64,000 nt of DNA from an uncultured Verrucomicrobiae bacterium (GTDB lineage: Bacteria > Verrucomicrobiota > Verrucomicrobiia > Chthoniobacterales > JAFAMB01). The position numbers and the translations under genes are program-made. The notes beneath the pieces are model-generated. The model made no database searches. It was not told where the DNA came from and saw nothing but the letters and a program-made list of their open reading frames with translations. Position 1 is the first letter of the stretch. Every line of letters starts with the position of its first letter. Of this stretch, positions 22,343 through 64,000 are shown one piece after another. Where the stretch lies: the NCBI GenBank assembly GCA_963813025.1, contig CAWEXO010000011.1:224001-288000 (forward strand), in the 5' to 3' direction.

Positions 22343-24044
22343 ATGAAAATGACGCGAAGCGCTTATGCCGAGATATTTGGTCCCACGACGGGCGATCGCA
22401 TTCGTCTGGCGGACACCGATCTTTTTGTCCAGATCGAACACGATTCCACGGTTTACGGCGAGGAAGTGAAATTTGGGGGCGGCAAGGTGATCCGCGACGG
22501 GATGGGCCAGTCTCAACGGACCAGCCGCGAGTCAGCGGATACAGTCATCACCAACGCGGTCATCCTGGACCATTGGGGCGTGGTCAAGGCTGACATCGGG
22601 ATCAAGAACGGCCGCATTTCGAGGATTGGCAAAGCCGGTAACCCGGATATTCAGCCCGGCATAACGATCGTGATCGGACCAGGGACCGAGATCATCGCGG
22701 GCGAAGGGATGATCGCGACCGCCGGCGGGATCGACACGCACATCCATTTCATCTGCCCGCAACAAATTGAGGAAGCGATTGCTTCGGGTATTACCACCAT
22801 GATCGGCGGCGGGACCGGTCCGGCGGCCGGAACTTGCGCCACCACCTGTACTCCCGGTCCGTGGCATATCGAACGCATGCTCCAGGCCGCCGAAGGTTAT
22901 CCCATGAACTTGGGATTTCTTGGCAAGGGCAATGCCAGCCGGCCGGAACCGCTCCGTGAACAGATTGCTGCGGGGGCGATCGGTTTGAAGCTGCACGAGG
23001 ACTGGGGAACGACTCCCGCCGCGATCGATACCTGTCTCGGAGTTGCCGACGATACTGACACGCAGGTCGCGATTCACACCGATACGCTGAATGAGTCTGG
23101 ATTTGTGGAGACGAGCGTCGCTGCGTTCAAAGGTCGGACCATTCACACTTATCATACCGAAGGGGCCGGCGGCGGCCACGCTCCGGATATTATCAAGGTG
23201 TGCGGCGAACCGAATGTGCTGCCGTCGTCGACCAATCCCACCCGGCCATTCACGGTCAACACGTTGGATGAGCATCTCGATATGCTGATGGTCTGCCATC
23301 ACCTTGATCCCGCGATCGCCGGAAGATCTGGCGTTTGCCGAATCAAGGATCCGGCGGGAAACGATCGCCGCGGAAGATATCCTCCATGACCTTGGCGCGC
23401 TCTCGATGATCTCGAGCGATTCTCAGGCGATGGGCCGGGTTGGCGAGGTCATCCTCCGAACCTGGCAAACGGCCCATAAGATGAAGACACAGCGAGGACG
23501 GCTTCCGGACGATACGGCTGACCACGATAACTTTCGGGTAAAACGTTATGTCGCCAAATACACGATCAATCCGGCTTTGACCCACGGCATTGCTCATGAA
23601 GTCGGTTCGATTGAGACCGGCAAGTGGGCCGATCTGGTTCTGTGGCAGCCCGCCTTCTTTGGCATAAAACCCAGCCTGATTTTAAAAGGCGGCATGATTT
23701 CCGTGGCGCTGATGGGCGATCCGAACGCCTCGATCCCTACCCCGCAACCTGTCCGGTACCGCAACATGTTCGGGTGCAGCGGAGAAGCGCTGGCCCGTAC
23801 TTGCTTTACGTTTGTTTCGAGAGAGGCCGCGGAAAACAAAGTTGCGGAATGTTACGGACTCCGCAAACAAATCGCAGCGGTGAAAGATGTCCGGAAGTTG
23901 CGAAAATCGGACCTGATCCACAACGGTTTGACTCCGCGGATCACGGTGGATCCAGAAACGTATCAGGTGATCGCTGACGGCGAAACGCTCCTCTGCGAAC
24001 CGGCGGAGGTGCTACCGATGGCTCAGCGCTATTTTCTTTTCTAA
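22343..24044 (+). CDS. ureC: Urease alpha subunit (extra G near 23321 splits the ORF)
   Basis: [51 protein letters not shown], then in a shifted frame [20 protein letters not shown] and [10 protein letters not shown]. Confidence 0.96.
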
Positions 24045-45496: not shown

Positions 45497-45569
45497 CAGG
45501 TCAGGAGGGACTCGAACCCCCAACCGGCGGTTTTGGAGACCGCTGCTCTACCAATTGAGCTACTGACCT
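45497..45569 (-). tRNA. tRNA-Trp (CCA); 3' CCA not encoded
   Basis: AGGTCAGTAGCTCAATTGGTAGAGCAGCGGTCTCCAAAACCGCCGGTTGGGGGTTCGAGTCCCTCCTGACCTG. Confidence 0.96.
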
Positions 45570-46909: not shown

Positions 46910-46985
<76 letters not shown>

Positions 46986-49544: not shown

Positions 49545-49619
49545 CGGGCTGTGGCTCAGCTTGGCTAGAGCGCCACGTTCGGGACGTGGAGGCCGTGGGT
49601 TCGAATCCCACCAGCCCGA
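49545..49619 (+). tRNA. tRNA-Pro (CGG); 3' CCA not encoded
   Basis: CGGGCTGTGGCTCAGCTTGGCTAGAGCGCCACGTTCGGGACGTGGAGGCCGTGGGTTCGAATCCCACCAGCCCGA. Confidence 0.96.
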
Positions 49620-50416: not shown

Positions 50417-53400
50417 ATGGCCAAAGCGGTCTTTCCGACGCAAGCAGCGATCGTCGTTCGCGGCGCGCGCCAGAACAATCTTAAAGGCATCGACTTGGAC
50501 TTGGCGCTGAATAGTCCACGTGGTCACAGGCCCGAGCGGCAGTGGAAAATCGAGTCTGGCCTTCGACACGATCTACGCCGAAGGGCAGCGCCGCTATGTC
50601 GAGACTTTCAGCCCTTACACCCGGCAGTTTCTCGATCGCATGGACAAACCGCTGGTGGACGAAGTAACGGGCATTCCGCCCGGCAATAGCGATTGGGCAA
50701 GCGAACCGGGTTCGCACGACCCGCTCAACGGTCGGCACGATGACGGACATCAATGATTATTTCAAGCTCTTCATGGCGAGAGTGGCGCGAGGCGTTTTGT
50801 CCCAGTTGTCAGCGCGAGATTACGCCCGAGACGCCCGACAGCGTCGTCACCGCAGCTTTTGCGCGATTGTCCCGGGTAATCCGTGCTCTGATCACCTTTG
50901 GCGTCCCCGTGCCTCCGGGAACCAAGCCGCGAGACTTTTTCCAATTCATTGGGCAGCAGGGATTTTTGCGCGTTTGGCTCAATCGAGAAACGTCAGGACC
51001 GACTCGCGACACGATGTCAAGCGGCTTCCCGGCAATCGTGCCGGTGATTCAGGATCGATTACAGATTTCGGCGGAAACCGTCCTCGCCTGATTGAAGCGA
51101 TCGAACAAGCGCTTCGCTTCGGCAAGGGGCGGGTCATGATCGTCAGCCTCGAACCAATGCACGAACATCGCTTTTCCAAGGGCTGGCATTGTCCATACTG
51201 CGATCTCGACATCCGCCCACCCTCTCCCGGCCTTTTCTCTTTCAACAATCCGGTAGGCGCATGTCCGGCTTGCCGAGGGTTTGGCCGGACCATTGGCATC
51301 GATTTGGATCGGGCGATTCCCGACCGCCAACTGAGCATCGCCGACGGCGCGATTAAGCCGTTCCAATTCGCCCAAATGCATGAATGCCAGCGCGATTTGA
51401 TCAAGCGCGCGCTGGAACGAGAGATCGACATCCATCTCCCATTCCAGGAACTTACCGGAAGCCGATCAGAGATGGGTGATCGAAGGTGAAACCCGACCCG
51501 AAGCCAGCGCAGAGGAAATCTGGGAAAGCGGTGGTTGGTATGGTGTCCGCGGGTTTTTCGAGTGGATGGAGTCCCGCACTTATAAGATGCATGTGCGCGT
51601 CTTTCTCAGCCGCTATCGCGCTTACACTCTCTGCCCGGACTGTCGCGGAACGCGATTGAAACCCCAGACCTTGAATTTCCGTGTCTGCAGTCGGCGAGCA
51701 CTCTTTCAGTCTGCCGCAGCTGCAGCAAATGCCGATTGACGAACTGGTGGAGAGAGCGGCCTGATCAGCCTGCCAGGCAGCGACTCCGCGACGGAGGTAA
51801 TTCGATCCCAAATCATTGCGCGACTCCGTTATCTGGTTGAGGTTGGGCTAGGCTACTTGACGCTCGATCGTTCGACCCGCTCGCTTTCCGGTGGCGAAAT
51901 TCAGCGGGTCAATCTGACCACCTGCCTCGGGGCGTGGCTGGTCAATACTCTCTTTGTCCTGGATGAACCCAGCGTTGGACTGCACCCGCGAGACGTCGAA
52001 AGATTAGTCGGCGTGCTTCATGGATTGCGGGACAAGGGCAACACGCTTCTAGTCGTCGAACACGATGAAACGGTGATGCGCGCCGCCGATAACTCTGCTC
52101 GAGCTCGGGCCGGGCCGGGGCGAGGCGGAGGGCATCTGGTTTTCGCCGGGCCGCTGTCAGATCGGTGCGAATGTGCCCGAGTCGCTCACCGCGAGTTACC
52201 TGACCGGCCGCAAGGAAATCCCAATCCCAAGCCGACGCCGACAACCTCGACGGTACCTGCGGGTAAAAAAGGCGCGGGAGCACAATCTCAAGGACATCGA
52301 TGTCGCGATCCCGTTAATGCTTTTGTCTGCGTAACCGGCGTCTCCGGCTCAGGGAAAAGCACGCTCATCCAGGATGTGTTATATGAGAATTTGCTGCGAC
52401 TAAAGGGCCTTGGCTCTGAACAAGCGCCGGCGCGTGCAGCGGAATCACCGGTGCGCACCTGGTCGAACAAGATCTTCTGGTGGACCAGTCGCCGCTGGCG
52501 CGCTCGCCTCGCTCGACTCCGGCAGTGTATCTCGGGGTTTTTGATAAGATCCGCGAACTCTTCGCCGCGGTGCCGGAAGCGTTGCTGCGGGTCTGAGCTC
52601 CGCGGCCTTTTCTTTTAACTCTGGCCCGGGCCGTTGCGAGCGCTGCGCGGGACTCGGCTTTGAGAAGGTCGAGATGCAATTTCTCAGCGACCAGTATGTT
52701 CGTTGCGCCGAATGTCAGGGCAGACGGTATCAACCGCATATTCTCAAGATCCGGCTATAGCGGAAAATCCATTGACGAGGTCCTGGATTTGACGGTGACG
52801 GAAGCGATCGAGTTCTTCCAGGCAATAAAGAAAAACTCCCCTTGCCGACCCCCTGGACCTCTTGCGGCGAGTTGGTCTCGGTTATCTTCGGCTCGGACAG
52901 CCGGTCAACGTCCTCTCCGGCGGCGAATCGCAGCGTCTGAAACTGGTTGGCCATTTAGCCGAGGGCAACAAAGGGAAACGGCGGCAACCTGCTGATCTTT
53001 GACGAACCGACGACCGGGCTGCACTTCGATGATATCGCTGCGCTTTTGCGATGTTTCAACGAGCTCGTCGACAGCCGGTAATTCCGTATTGGTGGTCGAG
53101 CACAATCTCGAAGTTATCCAGTCAGCCGATTACCTCATCGACCTCGGGCCGGAGGCCGGCGAAGGCGGCGGACAGATTGTCGCGACCGGCACTCCGGAGG
53201 AGGTCGCGAAAAACCAACATTCACGAATCGCGATATTCCTGAAGCGAGCGGCTTGCCGGCGTCATCGCGCGGACTATACTGAATCTCGCGAGAGAATCGC
53301 CGAGTTTCCGAAGGTTCGACCCAGCGATCGCGGTCCACGGCGCGCGCCAGCACAACCTGAAAAATTTAAGCGTCCGATGCCGCGCGAGAAGATGGACGGT

Positions 53401-56002
53401 GATCACCGGCTTGAGCGGCTCGGGAAAGTCGAGCCTCGCCTTCGATATCCTTTTTGCCGAAGGCCAGCGCCGTTTTCTCGACAGCATGTCGACCTATGCG
53501 CGGCAATTTGTCGAACAGCTGGAACGCCCGGATGTCGATCACATCGAAGGCTTGCCGCCGAGCGTCGCGATCGAGCAGCGAGTTACCCGCGGTGGAGGAA
53601 AATCCACCGTCGCGACAGTCACGGAAGTATACCATTTTCTCCGGCTGCTCTTTGCCAAACTGGGGCGCAATTTTGCCCCAAGTGCCGCGATCGCGGTCGA
53701 GAAGCAGAGTCTGGCCGCTATGCAGTCGATTGTGCTCGAACGGCTGCGCGCCAGCTCGGCTCTCCTGGCTGCCCCAGTGGTGAAGGCGCGCAAAGGGTTT
53801 CACCGGGAAATTGCCGAGGCCGCGGAGCGGGACGGCTATAAAAGCCTGATCGTTGATGGAGTGCGGTACTCGACAGATCAGTTCCCCGACCTGGAACGCT
53901 ATCGGGAACACTCGATCGAGGTCGTCGTCGCTGAGCTGGAACGGGGCGGCCCACCTGATTTGCCAGCTCTTCTGAAAACCGCTTTGCGGGTCGGTGGCGG
54001 ATCCGCGTTTTTGCTTCTGCTCAGGAGAGCGGGGCAACGCGGCAATGGCCGAAGCGCGAAAGCGCAGCCTGGCTTTGAGAAGGTTGTGCTCAGTAACGAG
54101 ATGAGCTGTCCGTCGTGCGGAACGGCGTTTGAAGAACTCGATCCGCGGCTCTTCTCGTTTAACTCGCCCCATGGCTGGTGCCTGACCTGCGAAGGATTCG
54201 GTTACTTGTTGCCTTTTTCAGCGGAGCGCGAGAGTACCCAATCCGTTCTCGAAGCGGAACTCGCGGTCGAACGGCGGAGCGACTGGATCGAAGAGGCAAC
54301 GCTGGAACAATGCCCAGACTGCGCGGGAACCCGGCTGAATCCCATCAGTCGCGCGGTTCGCTTGAAAGGCCTGCAGATCGAGCAGATCGCCGCGAGTTCG
54401 ATCCAGCAAGCCGATGTTCTTTTGCGCAGTTTGGATTTTTCATCGGCTGAACGGAATATCACAGCGCCGATTCTGCCCGAGATTCAGCAGCGGCTCTCTT
54501 TTCTGAAACAGGTCGGGCTGGATTACCTGGCGCTGAATCGCTCGGCGAAAACGCTGAGCGGAGGGGAAGCTCAACGGATCCGGCTAGCCGCTCAGCTTGG
54601 ATCGAACCTTCGAGGCGTTTTGTATGTTCTGGATGAACCAACAATTGGGCTTCATCCTCGCGACAACGAACGTCTTCTCGGGACATTGACCGCCCTGAAG
54701 GACAAAGGAAACACCGTAGTCATCGTTGAGCACGACGAGGCGACGATGCGAAGAGCCGATGTCGTAGTCGATCTTGGTCCCGGAGCCGGTCGAGAGGGCG
54801 GCCGCCTGGTGGGGCTGGGCACGCTGAGCGACATTCAGAAAAACCCTGACTCCGTCACCGGCAAATTTCTGGACTCACCTCCGCGGCATCCGTTGGGCGG
54901 AACCCGCCGAAGTCTCAATGACGTCCGCTGGATAAGATTGGACGGTGCGCGCGCCCACAATCTGAAGAATGTCAATGTGCAGCTTCCCGTAGGGCGCCTG
55001 ACAGTCATTACCGGAATTTCCGGCTCCGGAAAGAGTACCCTCATGCGCTCCGCTCTCCTGCCAGCCGTCCAGCAAGGACTGCGTTCAAGGCGTTCTTTGC
55101 CGGACGGGCGCGCGTGGACCGCGATCAGCGGCCTGGAAGCGATCGAAAACGTGTACGAGGTCGATCAATCACCCATCGGTAAAACGTCTCGCTCGATCCC
55201 TGCAACTTATGTCAAAGTCTTTGACCAGATTCGCGCCCTATTTGCCCAGCTGCCGGAGTCGAGAATCCGCGGTTATTCGGCCGCTCGATTTTCTTTCAAT
55301 AGCGAGGGAGGACGCTGCGAGATTTGCGCCGGGCAAGGTGTCATCAAAATGGAGATGAATTTTCTGCCGACCAGCTATTTGCCGTGCGAGACTTGCGGCG
55401 GCAAGCGTTTCAACACACAGACGCTGAGCGTGGAGTACAACGGCAAAAGCATCGGTGATGTCCTCGAAATGACCGTCGCGGAAGCGGCCGAATTTTTCCG
55501 ATCGCAACCTCGTATTTATCGAGCCTTGGACCTTCTGCGACAGACCGGCCTCGGCTACCTGCAACTCGGTCAGCCGAGTCCGACCTTGTCAGGCGGCGAA
55601 GCTCAGCGGCTCAAACTCGTCAATGAGTTGCGCGGAGGAGTCGGCAGAGCGATCGAAGAAAGAATCCGCAGGAACCGGACGCCAAGATCGAATCTCTATC
55701 TCCTGGAAGAACCGACCATCGGATTGCATATGGCGGATGTCCAGCTGCTCATCGAGGTACTGCAGCGTCTGGTGACTGAAGCAAACACCGTGGTGGTGAT
55801 TGAACACAACCCCGAGATCATGGCGGAAGCAGATTACATTATCGATCTCGGGCCGGAAGCCGGGCAAGCCGGAGGGGAGATCGTGGCTGCCGGTCCACCG
55901 GAATTCATCGCCGAACACCCGGTCAGCCGGACCGCTCCGTTCTTGAAAAAGATTCTCGACCGCGGCCGTCCTCTGGCCGAGCCGGCCTTGGCGCTCGAAT
56001 AA
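50417..56002 (+). CDS. uvrA: Excinuclease ABC subunit A, double-length tandem form; many frameshifts in the first module
   Basis: Four Walker A motifs ([36 protein letters not shown]), four LSGGE signatures and two AEGQRR motifs over about 1860 codons. Confidence 0.88.
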
Positions 56003-58671: not shown

Positions 58672-58913
58672 GGGAATGCGATCTTGAGTGTTCAGCGAAG
58701 ACGGCTCGCAGTCAACGGCGGGTCGCAGGATTCACTGCTGAGTTGCGCCTGTCACTTGCAGAAAACGACAGTTGTCTTTCAATCCACGAAAATCTGTGCC
58801 ATTTGTGGTTTAACCGTCAGGGGCTATGGAACGCGGACTTACAAACCCCGCCAGGGCAGGAATGCAGCAACGGTAGTATGCTCTTCGTGGTCGTAGTCCT
58901 CTGACGGGCTTTT

Positions 58914-60772: not shown

Positions 60773-61690
60773 TCAATTTTTAGCCGGCTCAATCAAACCG
60801 AACACGCCAACCCGCTGGCTTTTCCCTTTCAGCTGGAAATCGCCGAAGGGCTGAAATTTGCGTCCAGCCGGCAGAACAGTAACAAAATCCTGGGAACAAA
60901 CCAGTTGCTGGTTGAGTTCTTTCGCAACGCCTTCCAATCGGAAAACTGTATTCACCGCGTCGCCGAGAATTGTTGCATCGCGCACGGCCATCTGCCCGAC
61001 ATTGCTGCTGGTCACTCTCCCAAAGTGAAGAGCGAGAACGATCCGAAAGGTTTCGCCGGCCGGCCAGCTCCGGCGGACGGCCAACTCCCGAATGGTCAGA
61101 GCCGTCGATAGGCAAGTGGCACATTCCGTTCCGCGTTCGTCATGAGCAGGCCAGTAGGCAAGCACGGCGTCGCCGATATACTTGTCGATCACTCCGGCGC
61201 TGGCCTGAACCGTGTTGCCAATGTCGCGAAACCAATTGCCGATGATCCGGGCCAACTCGCGCTCTTCGAGCCGCTCCGTCATCGTACTGAAGCCGCGGAT
61301 ATCGCAGACCAGCATCGCCGCGGAAAGAGAGTTTTGACCTGCATCGCTGCCTTGAGCCGCTAAAGTAGCGTCCACCTGATCTTCGGTCCCCTCGTCTGGT
61401 AAGTGGTCGAAGATCAACTCATAATCCGCAATGCGCACCTTTGCTCCCGGCTCCAGGACGACGGGGGTGATCACCCGGCGACCATTCACAAAGGTACCGT
61501 TTCGACTTCCCAGATCCATGATCTGGTATTGGAAGGCGTTATAACAACGGACGATCGCATGCTGCCGGGAGACATGGCTGCCCGGAAGCATGATGGTGTT
61601 GTCCGCTGTCCGTCCAATCGTCGCCGTATTGCTGATAAACTTCTCGGTTGGCTCCCGATCGCTCCGGCAAACTCGAAACTTGGCGGACAT
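60773..61690 (-). CDS. FHA-domain class III adenylate cyclase
   Basis: FHA (IGRT, VSRQHA, DLGSRNGTFVNG) and cyclase motifs CDIRGFS, DKYIGDAV, TILGDAVNTVFRLE. Confidence 0.92.
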   Translation of the reverse strand: MSAKFRVCRSDREPTEKFISNTATIGRTADNTIMLPGSHVSRQHAIVRCYNAFQYQIMDLGSRNGTFVNGRRVITPVVLEPGAKVRIADYELIFDHLPDEGTEDQVDATLAAQGSDAGQNSLSAAMLVCDIRGFSTMTERLEERELARIIGNWFRDIGNTVQASAGVIDKYIGDAVLAYWPAHDERGTECATCLSTALTIRELAVRRSWPAGETFRIVLALHFGRVTSSNVGQMAVRDATILGDAVNTVFRLEGVAKELNQQLVCSQDFVTVLPAGRKFQPFGDFQLKGKSQRVGVFGLIEPAKN

Positions 61691-61994: not shown

Positions 61995-62023
61995 TTGACG
62001 GACGGGTGACCGTCTCCTAGCTT
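61995..62023 (+). promoter_or_regulatory. Sigma-70 promoter upstream of the SAM riboswitch
   Basis: TTGACG-N17-TAGCTT, ending about 10 nt before the aptamer. Confidence 0.7.
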
Positions 62024-62032
62024 CGCCGACAT

Positions 62033-62144
62033 TCCATCAAGAGTGGCAGAGGGACTGGCCCGACGAAGCCACGGCAACCGATCCTGGGCAACCAGGGTGA
62101 CCAGGTGCCAAATCCAGCCTCGAAACGGTTCGAGGGAAGATGGG
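62033..62144 (+). ncRNA. SAM-I (S-box) riboswitch
   Basis: CCATC-AAGAG-TGGCAGAGGGACTGGCCCGACGAAGCCACGGCAACC...GGTGCCAAATCCAGC...GGAA-GATGG, with P1 pairing CCATC/GATGG. Confidence 0.93.
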
Positions 62145-62192
62145 TCCGGAGCTTCGTGACTCTTGGTGGAAAGCCAAAAAGCCGCTCTTGCC

Positions 62193-63452
62193 ATGGATAC
62201 ACCTTCGTACTTTTCGCACCTGCAGTGTCGCGAGTGCGGTCGACACTACCGCAAGGAAGCCGTTCACGTCTGTGAGTTTGATTTTGGTCCGCTCGAAGCC
62301 GCTTATGATTATGCCGCAATTCGCGCGGCGATCGGACGCGAAACCATTTCGGCGCGTCCCCGGTCAATGTGGCGTTATCGTGAGTTTCTGCCGATCGAGA
62401 ACGTGCCAACCGTGGGCCTGTATACGGGTTCAACTCCCCTGGTGCGTGCTGACCGGCTGGCCGCGAGACTGGGTGTGCGGGAACTCTACCTGAAAAATGA
62501 TGCGTACAATCATCCGACGCTCTCGTTCAAGGATCGCGTGGTCTCGGTGGCGCTCAGCCGGGCTCGTGAACTCGGTATCGGCACAGTGGCTTGCGCGTCG
62601 ACGGGCAACCTGGCAAACGCCGTAGCCGCTCATGCCGCTTCGGTCGGCCTGAAAAGCGTCGTGTTGATTCCTTCGAACCTGGAGCGAAGCAAAGTGATCA
62701 ATTCGCTCGTGTACTCCACCAACTTGGTCGCCATTGAGGGCGCTTACGATCAGGTGAACCGACTTTGTGCGGAAATTGCCGGGAAATACGGATGGGGTTT
62801 TGTGAACGTCAACCTGCGGCCCTACTACGCCGAAGGCTCAAAAACCATGGGGTTCGAGATCATGGAACAACTGGGCTGGCGGCTGCCCAGGCACACCGTG
62901 ATCCCGATGGCGAGCGGAGCGTTATTAACCAAAATCTCCAAGGCCTATCATGAGTTTATCGAGGTTGGTCTGGTATCCGAGGGAGAATTCTCGATTCACG
63001 GAGCGCAAGCGGCTGGCTGCTCGCCGATCAGTACGGCGGTGAAAAACAATAGCGAAGTCGTCCGCCCGGTACCCAAACCACAAACGATCGCCAAATCGCT
63101 CGCCATCGGCACACCGGCGGATGGGTACTATGCCATTCGGGCCATGAAAGACAGTGGCGGGACTGCGGAAGACTGCACCGACGCTGAAATCGTCACCGCG
63201 ATTCAGTTGCTGGCGGAAACGGAAGGAATTTTTGCCGAGACCGCGGGAGGGGTAACCGTGGCCTGCGCTCGCAAGTTGATCGAGGCGGGCCGAATTCAGC
63301 CTCATGAATCAGCGGTTCTTTGTATCACTGGATATGGGCTGAAAACCCAGGAAGCGGTCGCCGAACACATGGAATTCCCTCCGGTCATTCGTCCGACGCT
63401 CAAAGACTTCGAGGCCTTGCTTGCCGATCGACGTTTCGCCAATATTAACTGA
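62193..63452 (+). CDS. Threonine-synthase-like PLP enzyme (probable sulfur-incorporating homolog)
   Basis: N-terminal CRECG...C, PLP lysine in SFKDR, ASTGN, NLRPYYAEGSKT, PMASGALLTK, EGIFAETAGG, ITGYGLK. Confidence 0.88.
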   Translation: MDTPSYFSHLQCRECGRHYRKEAVHVCEFDFGPLEAAYDYAAIRAAIGRETISARPRSMWRYREFLPIENVPTVGLYTGSTPLVRADRLAARLGVRELYLKNDAYNHPTLSFKDRVVSVALSRARELGIGTVACASTGNLANAVAAHAASVGLKSVVLIPSNLERSKVINSLVYSTNLVAIEGAYDQVNRLCAEIAGKYGWGFVNVNLRPYYAEGSKTMGFEIMEQLGWRLPRHTVIPMASGALLTKISKAYHEFIEVGLVSEGEFSIHGAQAAGCSPISTAVKNNSEVVRPVPKPQTIAKSLAIGTPADGYYAIRAMKDSGGTAEDCTDAEIVTAIQLLAETEGIFAETAGGVTVACARKLIEAGRIQPHESAVLCITGYGLKTQEAVAEHMEFPPVIRPTLKDFEALLADRRFANIN

Positions 63453-63464
63453 GGAAAACATCCT

Positions 63465-63740
63465 ATGCCTGTACCCGTTCGAATCCCTACCCCGCTCCGT
63501 AAATTGACTGCCAACCAGGAGGTTGTGCAGGTCGAAGGCGGGACTGTCCGCGAAGTGATCAACCATCTGGAGATCGCTTTTCCCGGTCTGAAGGAACGCA
63601 TCTGCGACGAAGAGAACAACGTCCGCCGTTTCGTGAACGTCTTTGTTAACGACGAGGACATCCGGTTCCTGGAAGACACTGACACCCGATTAAAATCGGG
63701 AGACGAGATCAGTATCGTGCCGGCGATTGCGGGAGGATAG
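63465..63740 (+). CDS. ThiS/MoaD/CysO-family ubiquitin-like sulfur carrier
   Basis: VRIPTPLR, RRFVNVFVNDEDIRFL, C-terminal PAIAGG. GAGG RBS upstream. Confidence 0.93.
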   Translation: MPVPVRIPTPLRKLTANQEVVQVEGGTVREVINHLEIAFPGLKERICDEENNVRRFVNVFVNDEDIRFLEDTDTRLKSGDEISIVPAIAGG

Positions 63741-63749
63741 GCGGTAGCG

Positions 63750-63784
63750 TTTCACGTTTCGCGTTTCGCGTTTCACGTTCCGCG
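63750..63784. repeat. Heptamer tandem repeat (TTTCRCG)x5
   Basis: Same unit as 58914-58955, with the last copy degenerate. Confidence 0.85.
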
Positions 63785-63873
63785 TTGTCCGCGTGCGCGC
63801 GCGGTGCGCGTTTTCCATTGCGCATATTCAGTGTAGACATGTCGAAGCTTTTATAACCAGGTTATTGAGAGTT

Positions 63874-64000
63874 ATGACTATTACTCGATTTGAAGACCTG
63901 GAGGCTTATCAAGTTGCGCGGGAGTTCACCCGAAAAGTTGGCCAATTGTTGCGCACGCCGAGCTCTGCTAAAAGAACGCACATGGTAGCCCAAACAGAAC
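63874..64000 (+). CDS. Four-helix-bundle protein (23S rRNA IVP-like), truncated by the window end
   Basis: MTITRFEDLEAYQVAREFTRKV matches the family's typical FEDL-x-x-W/Y start. Confidence 0.65.
   Translation, partial: MTITRFEDLEAYQVAREFTRKVGQLLRTPSSAKRTHMVAQTE

Follow-up and report, generated by a model that had tools for sequence, protein, structure and literature searches.

The window analysed here is a stretch of 64,000 nucleotides from a genome assembly of an uncultured Verrucomicrobiae bacterium (the source genome, G000, 80% complete). It carries two adjacent genes preceded by a riboswitch, with the following features.

61995..62023, + strand: probable sigma-70 promoter, -35 TTGACG (61995-62000), 17 nt, -10 TAGCTT (62018-62023), read in the sequence
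62031..62146, + strand: SAM-I riboswitch aptamer (RF00162), from the Rfam covariance model
62160..62171, + strand: anti-aptamer strand CUCUUGGUGGAA, complementary to the aptamer 5' strand UUCCAUCAAGAG (62032-62043)
62165..62195, + strand: candidate weak hairpin over the start region, from folding and comparison with same-family loci
62193..63452, + strand: putative MetM-type homocysteine synthase (ThrC paralog), 419 aa, from ORF, profiles, motifs, tree and fold
63465..63740, + strand: putative MetO-type ubiquitin-like sulfur carrier, 91 aa, with a free Gly-Gly end, from ORF and profiles

The aptamer matches the full RF00162 model (1-108) with 82.5 bits, for a gathering score of 44.4 and an E value of 6.2e-18, and is the sole SAM-I match of the genome among the 150 of 308 first-look candidates that were scored. 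It ends 46 nt before the enzyme gene, which runs from ATG 62193 to the stop at 63452, the mechanically called ORF opening at TTG 62163. The first product is a fold-type II PLP enzyme (PALP fold, 219.9 bits) with PLP lysine K113, an N-terminal CxxC...CxxD and a PMASGALLTK loop. The second belongs to the ThiS family (66.7 bits), also scores over the cut-off of MoaD/SAMP1-type models and terminates in ...PAIAGG; its gene lies 12 bp further downstream (63453-63464). The initial annotation had read the unit in this way, as a SAM-I aptamer, a ThrC-fold PLP enzyme and a Gly-Gly-ending ThiS/MoaD protein with 12 bp between the genes, and each of these elements is borne out. For the promoter that it had also proposed, the sequence is present and conserved, but a consensus scan does not list it. 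Our call of this promoter rests on conservation and not on the scan, because the scanner missed TTGACG/TAGCTT, whose -10 fits only three of six positions, yet TTGAC is kept 39-43 nt 5' of the aptamer core in 30/30 loci; a more relaxed TTG-N16-18-TAnnnT pattern is present in 26 of the 30. A promoter upstream of the aptamer is probable, with transcription expected to start at about 62030.

The unit is widely conserved. Close orthologues of the enzyme (E below 1e-150) are encoded by 35 of 41 genomes of the order, the source genome included, and by 21 of the 25 high-quality ones (completeness of 90% or more, contamination of 5% or less). Relatives' loci were taken from the best 30 matches, 29 of them from genomes other than the source genome, and in 29/29 a SAM-I aptamer lies upstream and the carrier downstream, one carrier being cut by a contig end. 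The 0.9-Mb genome G032 (99% complete) also has enzyme and carrier, with no Rfam riboswitch match at the locus. Close homologs of the enzyme, at 73-79% identity, belong to Chthoniobacterales or Verrucomicrobia bacteria, which situates the lineage, and those that are named are annotated as threonine synthase.

Relationship of the enzyme to MetM and to threonine synthases

A thiocarboxylate route from O-phosphohomoserine to homocysteine is described for Streptomyces albulus in the accessible text of GapMind 2026, with the carrier MetO, the hydrolase Mec, the ligase MoeZ and the synthase MetM, the latter being often misannotated as threonine synthase according to the same source. The route is credited to Hasebe et al. 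2024 (Appl Environ Microbiol 90:e01247-24) in the accessible parts of bioRxiv 10.1101/2024.10.14.618325 / PMC13759103, PMC12172450 and bioRxiv 10.64898/2026.09.15.751699. The initial annotation had pointed to a MetM/MetO route of this kind in Streptomyces, in agreement with the published one as these sources give it. It had also supposed that the occurrence and regulation in this lineage might be new; for the regulation this does not hold, a SAM riboswitch having already been reported upstream of S. albulus metM (PMC12172450, accessible text).

By profile and by fold the enzyme of the window resembles a threonine synthase. Its best NCBIfam models are threonine synthases, among them TIGR00260 (thrC; 272 for a cut-off of 167), and its nearest solved relatives by sequence are threonine synthases as well. 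The structures closest to its AlphaFold model (pLDDT 94.5) are again those of threonine synthases, with a TM-score of 0.92 on the target and 32-35% identity. TIGR00260 is nevertheless not discriminating, since the riboswitch-linked enzyme of Streptomyces also passes its cut-off, with 267 bits.

Orthology was judged via actinomycete proxies, a set of 81 loci made up of one Nonomuraea locus, on a chromosome-sized record, and the 80 top-ranking among 582 stretches that were confirmed; the S. albulus entries A0A059WBP2 and A0A059W7F4 of UniProt are absent among the 15 members listed per 90% cluster. In all 81 loci of this set the riboswitch-and-carrier-linked enzyme is 50-56% identical to that of the window (53% in a pairwise check) and is followed 3' by a carrier gene with 45-53% identity, and a SAM-I aptamer lies 5' of the gene in 21 of the 21 loci scanned. 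The best match of the enzyme in each of five actinomycete genomes is the gene with SAM riboswitch and carrier (53-55%), whereas canonical ThrC reaches 36-38% there.

Sequence motifs separate the two types. SFKDRV, STGNLA, FVNVNLRPYY[AG]EGSK and ASG[AS]xLT are present in 23/23 riboswitch/carrier-type rows of the alignment and in 0/7 canonical ThrC rows, which carry instead SFKDRG, STGNTS, GN[AG]GNI and IR[IV]GNPA; the enzyme and its actinomycete counterparts also have AKSL[AS]IG[TN]PADG in common. The contrast between the PMASGALLTK loop and the PxGNxGN of ThrC, to which the initial annotation had drawn attention, cleanly splits these 23 rows from the seven. According to alignment and tree, the enzyme is without the canonical PxGNAGN, STGNT and PxR motifs, which we take to be phosphate-site motifs of ThrC, and falls outside the clade of known ThrC. 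The phylogeny proposed at the outset, here a quick search on 67 rows, assembles the riboswitch/carrier-type enzymes of the window and of actinomycetes in one 42-row clade (SH-aLRT 100, with weakly supported branching inside), apart from the ThrC clade (99). The enzyme thus appears, from sequence comparison, to be an orthologue of Streptomyces MetM rather than of ThrC.

The source genome contains three ThrC-like genes. The possibility, raised by the initial annotation, that the enzyme of the window is the genome's sole ThrC is contradicted by a separate canonical thrC in a hom-thrC-lysC operon on contig C11, whose product displays the GNAGN loop and falls together with the ThrC of actinomycetes (SH-aLRT 99). 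The third paralog (C5:305k) forms a clade of its own and has no riboswitch. Canonical thrC is found in 38/41 genomes and in 24 of the 25 high-quality ones, including all 21 high-quality genomes with the riboswitch-type enzyme.

These data bear on the alternative that survives best, namely that the gene encodes a second, SAM-regulated threonine synthase or a threonine deaminase, the carrier serving another sulfur pathway, for example that of molybdopterin. Apart from the ThrC fold and the TIGR00260 score, it can draw on a Microcystis homolog 51.6% identical to MetM, which adjoins a metO-like gene, has no riboswitch and is reported to display threonine synthase and deaminase activities in vitro and, according to its authors, not to behave fully as MetM in cells; its sulfur test used sodium sulfide (PMC12172450, accessible text). 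Such side activities are plausible for the window enzyme too. However, the same profile is passed by the Streptomyces enzyme, the genome already has its canonical thrC as well as separate ThiS and MoaD-like carriers, and neither the SAM control nor the missing MetA, MetX and MetY would be explained. We hold this alternative to be improbable.

Methionine pathway and partners of the carrier

MetA was found in none of the 41 genomes (its positive control matched in 8/14), full-length MetX (E about 1e-104) in four (G027, G031, G034 and G035) and MetY over the cut-off in three (G027, G034 and G035). As plain counts among kindred genomes, given without a statistic, the enzyme comes with no MetA, MetX or MetY match in 19 of its 21 high-quality genomes, and MetX occurs in two of the four high-quality genomes without it. 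G027 and G034, both of high quality, keep MetX and MetY in addition to the enzyme. A MetX-like match of the source genome was rejected as MetX: it is partial, its best model is PRK07581, below cut-off, and its N-terminus is hydrophobic and signal-like.

Upstream and downstream of homocysteine, the source genome encodes ThrB, over cut-off and with its neighbouring pieces in frame, and MetH, in frameshifted pieces. Frameshifts also break uvrA and a Cys/Met-metabolism lyase, so that those of metH fit assembly indels; the aptamer and the two genes of the operon are unbroken. The best model of this lyase is cystathionine gamma-lyase, below cut-off. We assign the strong Cys/Met-lyase matches of the family to reverse transsulfuration, given that G001 and G007, the two genomes inspected, have a cystathionine beta-synthase-like gene immediately upstream, an assignment limited by profiles that give 485 bits each to gamma-lyase and gamma-synthase and cannot tell them apart.

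For the activation of the carrier, a full-length ThiF-family enzyme is present in 37/41 genomes and in 25/25 high-quality ones; the two that were examined have MoeB/MoeZ models as best matches, below cut-off, and a rhodanese domain. No ThiF/MoeZ gene was found in the 80%-complete source assembly. This assembly contains no DNA orthologous to the 18-kb moeZ block of G001, a genome of the same genus, the best matches of the neighbouring genes reaching at most 48%, although the orthologues of the enzyme and of thrC are 94% and 88% identical between the two. The missing moeZ is most likely due to a gap in the assembly, since the whole block is absent and the two further ThiS/MoaD-like carriers of the source genome, separate from that of the operon, also need such a MoeZ-type enzyme.

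The same observations could be turned into another alternative, in which enzyme and carrier are MetM/MetO orthologues but do not form the working methionine route of this organism, either through loss of moeZ or with homocysteine arising from the cystathionine-lyase-like protein. The missing ThiF-family gene, the frameshifted metH and the presence of a Cys/Met-metabolism PLP enzyme would agree with it. Against it stand the incompleteness of the assembly, from which an entire block is missing in spite of such close orthologues elsewhere, and the distribution of frameshifts, which touch uvrA and the lyase as expected of assembly indels and spare the operon. This alternative seems less probable still than a second threonine synthase.

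The initial annotation had looked to a JAMM peptidase as a further partner, but an actinomycete Mec-type query found no Mec in any of the 41 genomes, in a search run without internal positive control. Pfam JAB gives weak matches in these genomes (best E 3e-10), as against 2e-31 to 2e-29 in five of five actinomycete genomes. Four of the 22 JAB matches were inspected: two turned out to be RadC or similar to it, a third is a long ORF unrelated to Mec, and the fourth belongs to an unrelated JAB/ThiF cluster. The match of the source genome is RadC and was rejected as Mec. Mec would not be needed for maturation of the carrier, because the carrier already ends in Gly-Gly. If the route works here, homocysteine would presumably be released without this peptidase, by thioester hydrolysis. 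A small NIL-domain gene, confirmed by Pfam, follows the carrier in eight of nine other-family loci and occurs in 10 of 16 other-family genomes; it seems dispensable, as it is found in none of the 25 genomes of the family to which the source genome belongs.

The least probable alternative, a carrier-dependent cysteine synthase acting on O-phosphoserine like CysM/CysO or a cysteate synthase, shares the carrier chemistry and a related fold, but the enzyme gives a weak cysteate synthase match (TIGR03844, 72.6 bits for a cut-off of 324.9) and 43 bits with the cysM model (cut-off 394), the two actinomycete Mec loci read have Mec, a second carrier and a cysteine-synthase-like gene in a separate cluster, and the mycobacterial CysM/CysO cysteine route needs for release of cysteine a Mec, which was found in none of the 41 genomes.

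Leader RNA and proposed route

Downstream of the aptamer, CUCUUGGUGGAA (62160-62171) can pair with UUCCAUCAAGAG (62032-62043) in a helix of 12 bp, with a computed duplex energy of -16.7 kcal/mol. This anti-aptamer helix and the aptamer P1 are mutually exclusive, and the unconstrained fold favours the former. It beats shuffled sequences at p<=0.01 in 21/21 same-family loci and in 23 of 30 loci overall. No terminator with a U tail separates the aptamer from the gene, the longest U-run in the window's leader being 2, and none of the 21 same-family loci has GGAG, GAGG or AGGA 5' of the AUG.

Once P1 is formed, the freed GGUGG is able to pair with a pyrimidine tract 5' of the AUG. When P1 is forced, accessibility of the pre-AUG region is lower in 19/21 same-family loci, in several by 0.05 or less; the leader of the window itself goes in the opposite direction and becomes more open (0.18 to 0.44). 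The hairpin over the start region (62165-62195, -4.2 kcal/mol) is not significant in the window (p 0.73 versus shuffles), and in the same-family loci it reaches p<=0.05 in 6/21 and p<=0.2 in 15/21. Our best reading is a translational OFF switch, in which a hairpin over a start without Shine-Dalgarno motif would form once P1 forms. This reading rests more on SAM-I precedent and on the biosynthetic role of the genes than on the folding of the window.

Taken together, the unit is very probably a SAM-repressed metM-metO operon of a Chthoniobacterales-type verrucomicrobium, making homocysteine. In the pathway that we propose, ThrB, whose gene is present, would supply O-phosphohomoserine. A MoeZ-type E1-rhodanese, with its established chemistry and a gene found in the relatives but not in the source assembly, would adenylate the C-terminal glycine of the carrier and convert it into a thiocarboxylate. 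The PLP enzyme would eliminate the gamma-phosphate as ThrC does and, where ThrC adds water at C-beta, attach the sulfur of the carrier at C-gamma, yielding homocysteine, a step reported for the Streptomyces enzyme in the accessible literature and expected here by orthology. MetH, for which a gene is found though frameshifted in the assembly, would then methylate homocysteine to methionine. At high SAM, P1 would replace the 12-bp anti-aptamer helix and expression would fall, most likely at translation initiation; the aptamer and the alternative helix are computed, and from them we infer direction and level of the regulation. The gamma-replacement on O-phosphohomoserine with carrier-bound sulfur, bypassing MetA/MetX, which the initial annotation had put forward, is thus supported, and it corresponds to the MetM/MetO chemistry as published in the sources accessible to us.

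The pathway and its control by SAM are already known from Streptomyces (2024, as the accessible sources present it), and the operon of the window is a new copy. We found no report of a MetM/MetO route in Verrucomicrobia or Chthoniobacterales in a literature search that most subscription papers lay outside. The Chthoniobacterales form devoid of Mec and NIL, together with its leader structure, was likewise not found in print, although Hasebe et al. 2024 may cover the distribution. We lean, with some reserve, towards the view that this two-protein MetM/MetO without Mec or NIL is the only homocysteine route of the family, under a SAM-I switch occluding a start without Shine-Dalgarno motif. If so, no peptidase would be needed for the enzyme to free homocysteine from the carrier, and abundant soil verrucomicrobia, as well as the reduced 0.9-Mb genome G032, would be methionine prototrophs that standard annotation calls auxotrophs.

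A correction of annotation follows, the homologs labelled threonine synthase being most likely MetM-type. It is because of this label that Chthoniobacterales without MetA, MetX and MetY look unable to make homocysteine; despite the apparent gap, 21 of 25 high-quality genomes carry a MetM/MetO-type route. The lineage would offer a natural minimal version, with neither Mec nor NIL, in which to study the release of homocysteine from the carrier, as well as a compact SAM-I platform that has no Shine-Dalgarno motif.

Comparison with known systems

In the CysM/CysO/Mec and Wolinella HcyS/MetY/HcyD systems, a protein C-terminal thiocarboxylate gives its sulfur to a PLP enzyme, and both use a JAMM peptidase for release of the product. 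They differ from the unit described here by their enzyme families and substrates and by this peptidase, which we did not find among the 41 genomes. Canonical ThrC (Thermus 1UIM, Aquifex 2ZSJ, Bacillus 6CGQ) has the fold, the PLP lysine and probably the substrate in common with the window enzyme, which displays ASGAL in place of the GNAGN loop, STGNL in place of STGNT, a tyrosine where PxRxxGQKT has its arginine, and an extra N-terminal Cys motif.

On the side of the carrier, the closest characterized protein that we compared is PtmS3 of Streptomyces platensis, 51% identical to that of the window and in the same 90% cluster as a carrier adjoining a Streptomyces MetM-type gene. In vitro, PtmS3 donated sulfur when combined with a MoeZ homolog and thiosulfate; it was studied as a donor recruited into the synthesis of a natural product, with no link to methionine in the accessible text (PMC6006322). 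Unlike the carrier of the window, it has a Cys cap after GG. Among the actinomycete loci (Nonomuraea and the best 80 of 582), 61/81 carriers end in plain GG, as the uncapped carrier of the window does, whereas 20/81 bear a GGC or GGCR cap.

The nearest system remains MetM/MetO of Streptomyces. Compared with it, the leader of the window stands out by an anti-aptamer helix specific to its family and by the lack of a Shine-Dalgarno motif upstream of the AUG, and the second metal-site motif of the enzyme is CxxD instead of CxxC. Mec, listed in the accessible sources as a carrier-maturation step in Streptomyces, was found in none of the 41 genomes of the window's order. As far as the same sources describe S. 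albulus, both systems nevertheless consist of a ThrC homolog usually called threonine synthase, an adjoining carrier and an upstream SAM riboswitch, with a separate canonical thrC; a MoeZ-type activator is encoded elsewhere, on the verrucomicrobial side in the high-quality relatives.

Persistence of the predicted route in a reduced genome

One genome of the same order, G032, holds only 0.9 Mb in a single contig and is 99% complete. At the two loci examined there, L052 and L053 (G032:C1:447000-457000 and 545000-554000), and in the genome at large, a MetM-type enzyme 68% identical to that of the window is retained together with the carrier, the carrier-activating enzyme moeZ and a canonical thrC, while searches of G032 for MetA, MetX, MetY and the Cys/Met-lyase gave no match. 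This gene content argues that the predicted MetM/MetO route has outlasted strong genome reduction in G032. No riboswitch was found at the G032 enzyme locus, and thus the route may be unregulated there.

Additional paralogs and interrupted genes

The source genome G000 encodes a third ThrC-like paralog (G000:C5:305115-306281; see also loci L060 and L062), which displays the motif GGGTG, forms a separate clade of its own and for which no riboswitch was found. Its counterpart in G007 lies just 5′ of a cystathionine beta-synthase/gamma-lyase-like pair, and in G010, G011, G015 and G023 the paralog is at most about 3 kb from a lyase match. In G013 (79% complete), the MetM-type gene is found twice, on contigs G013:C255 and G013:C191, in nearly equal copies that score 76% against the window's enzyme; duplication or binning could account for the pair.

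Three genes of G000 are split by frameshifts:

window 51857-56002, uvrA-like gene
G000:C11:976532-980086, metH
G000:C13:607415-608499, cystathionine-lyase gene

Since these frameshifts are probably assembly indel errors, claims of gene loss in G000 call for caution.

Surroundings of the operon and a JAB-domain locus

The following features were recorded in the window:

22490-22775, - strand, Rfam match to 5′ ureB sRNA, possibly merely urease coding sequence
45497-45569, - strand, tRNA (Rfam)
46913-46985, - strand, tRNA (Rfam)
49545-49619, + strand, tRNA (Rfam)
58815-58909, + strand, small SRP RNA (Rfam)
60773-61690, - strand, gene with FHA and adenylate/guanylate cyclase domains, transcribed divergently from the putative metM-metO operon
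63741-63811, region 3′ of the carrier, TTTCRCG repeat followed by a GC hairpin with U-tail
63874-64000, + strand, small four-helix-bundle gene continuing beyond the window

The repeat is of low complexity, with 47 genome matches by short-word blast. The hairpin (63791-63811) is a possible operon terminator, such hairpins occurring at a chance-level count. The gene at 63874-64000 matches PF05635 (78.9 bits), the family of 23S rRNA-intervening-sequence proteins; it does not appear among the same-strand ORFs listed 3′ of the carrier in the same-genus genome G001.

In sister families, an 80-aa NIL-domain gene directly follows the carrier (loci L026, L031-L035, L037 and L038) and was found in 10 of 16 genomes; none was found in the source family (0/25).

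In G018, a JAB-domain gene stands beside a ThiF-like gene, with a ubiquitin/E2-like ORF upstream (L155, G018:C11:76139-78959). This locus looks more like a defence cluster of the bacterial ubiquitin-like type than like Mec, the JAMM/JAB peptidase of the Streptomyces route.
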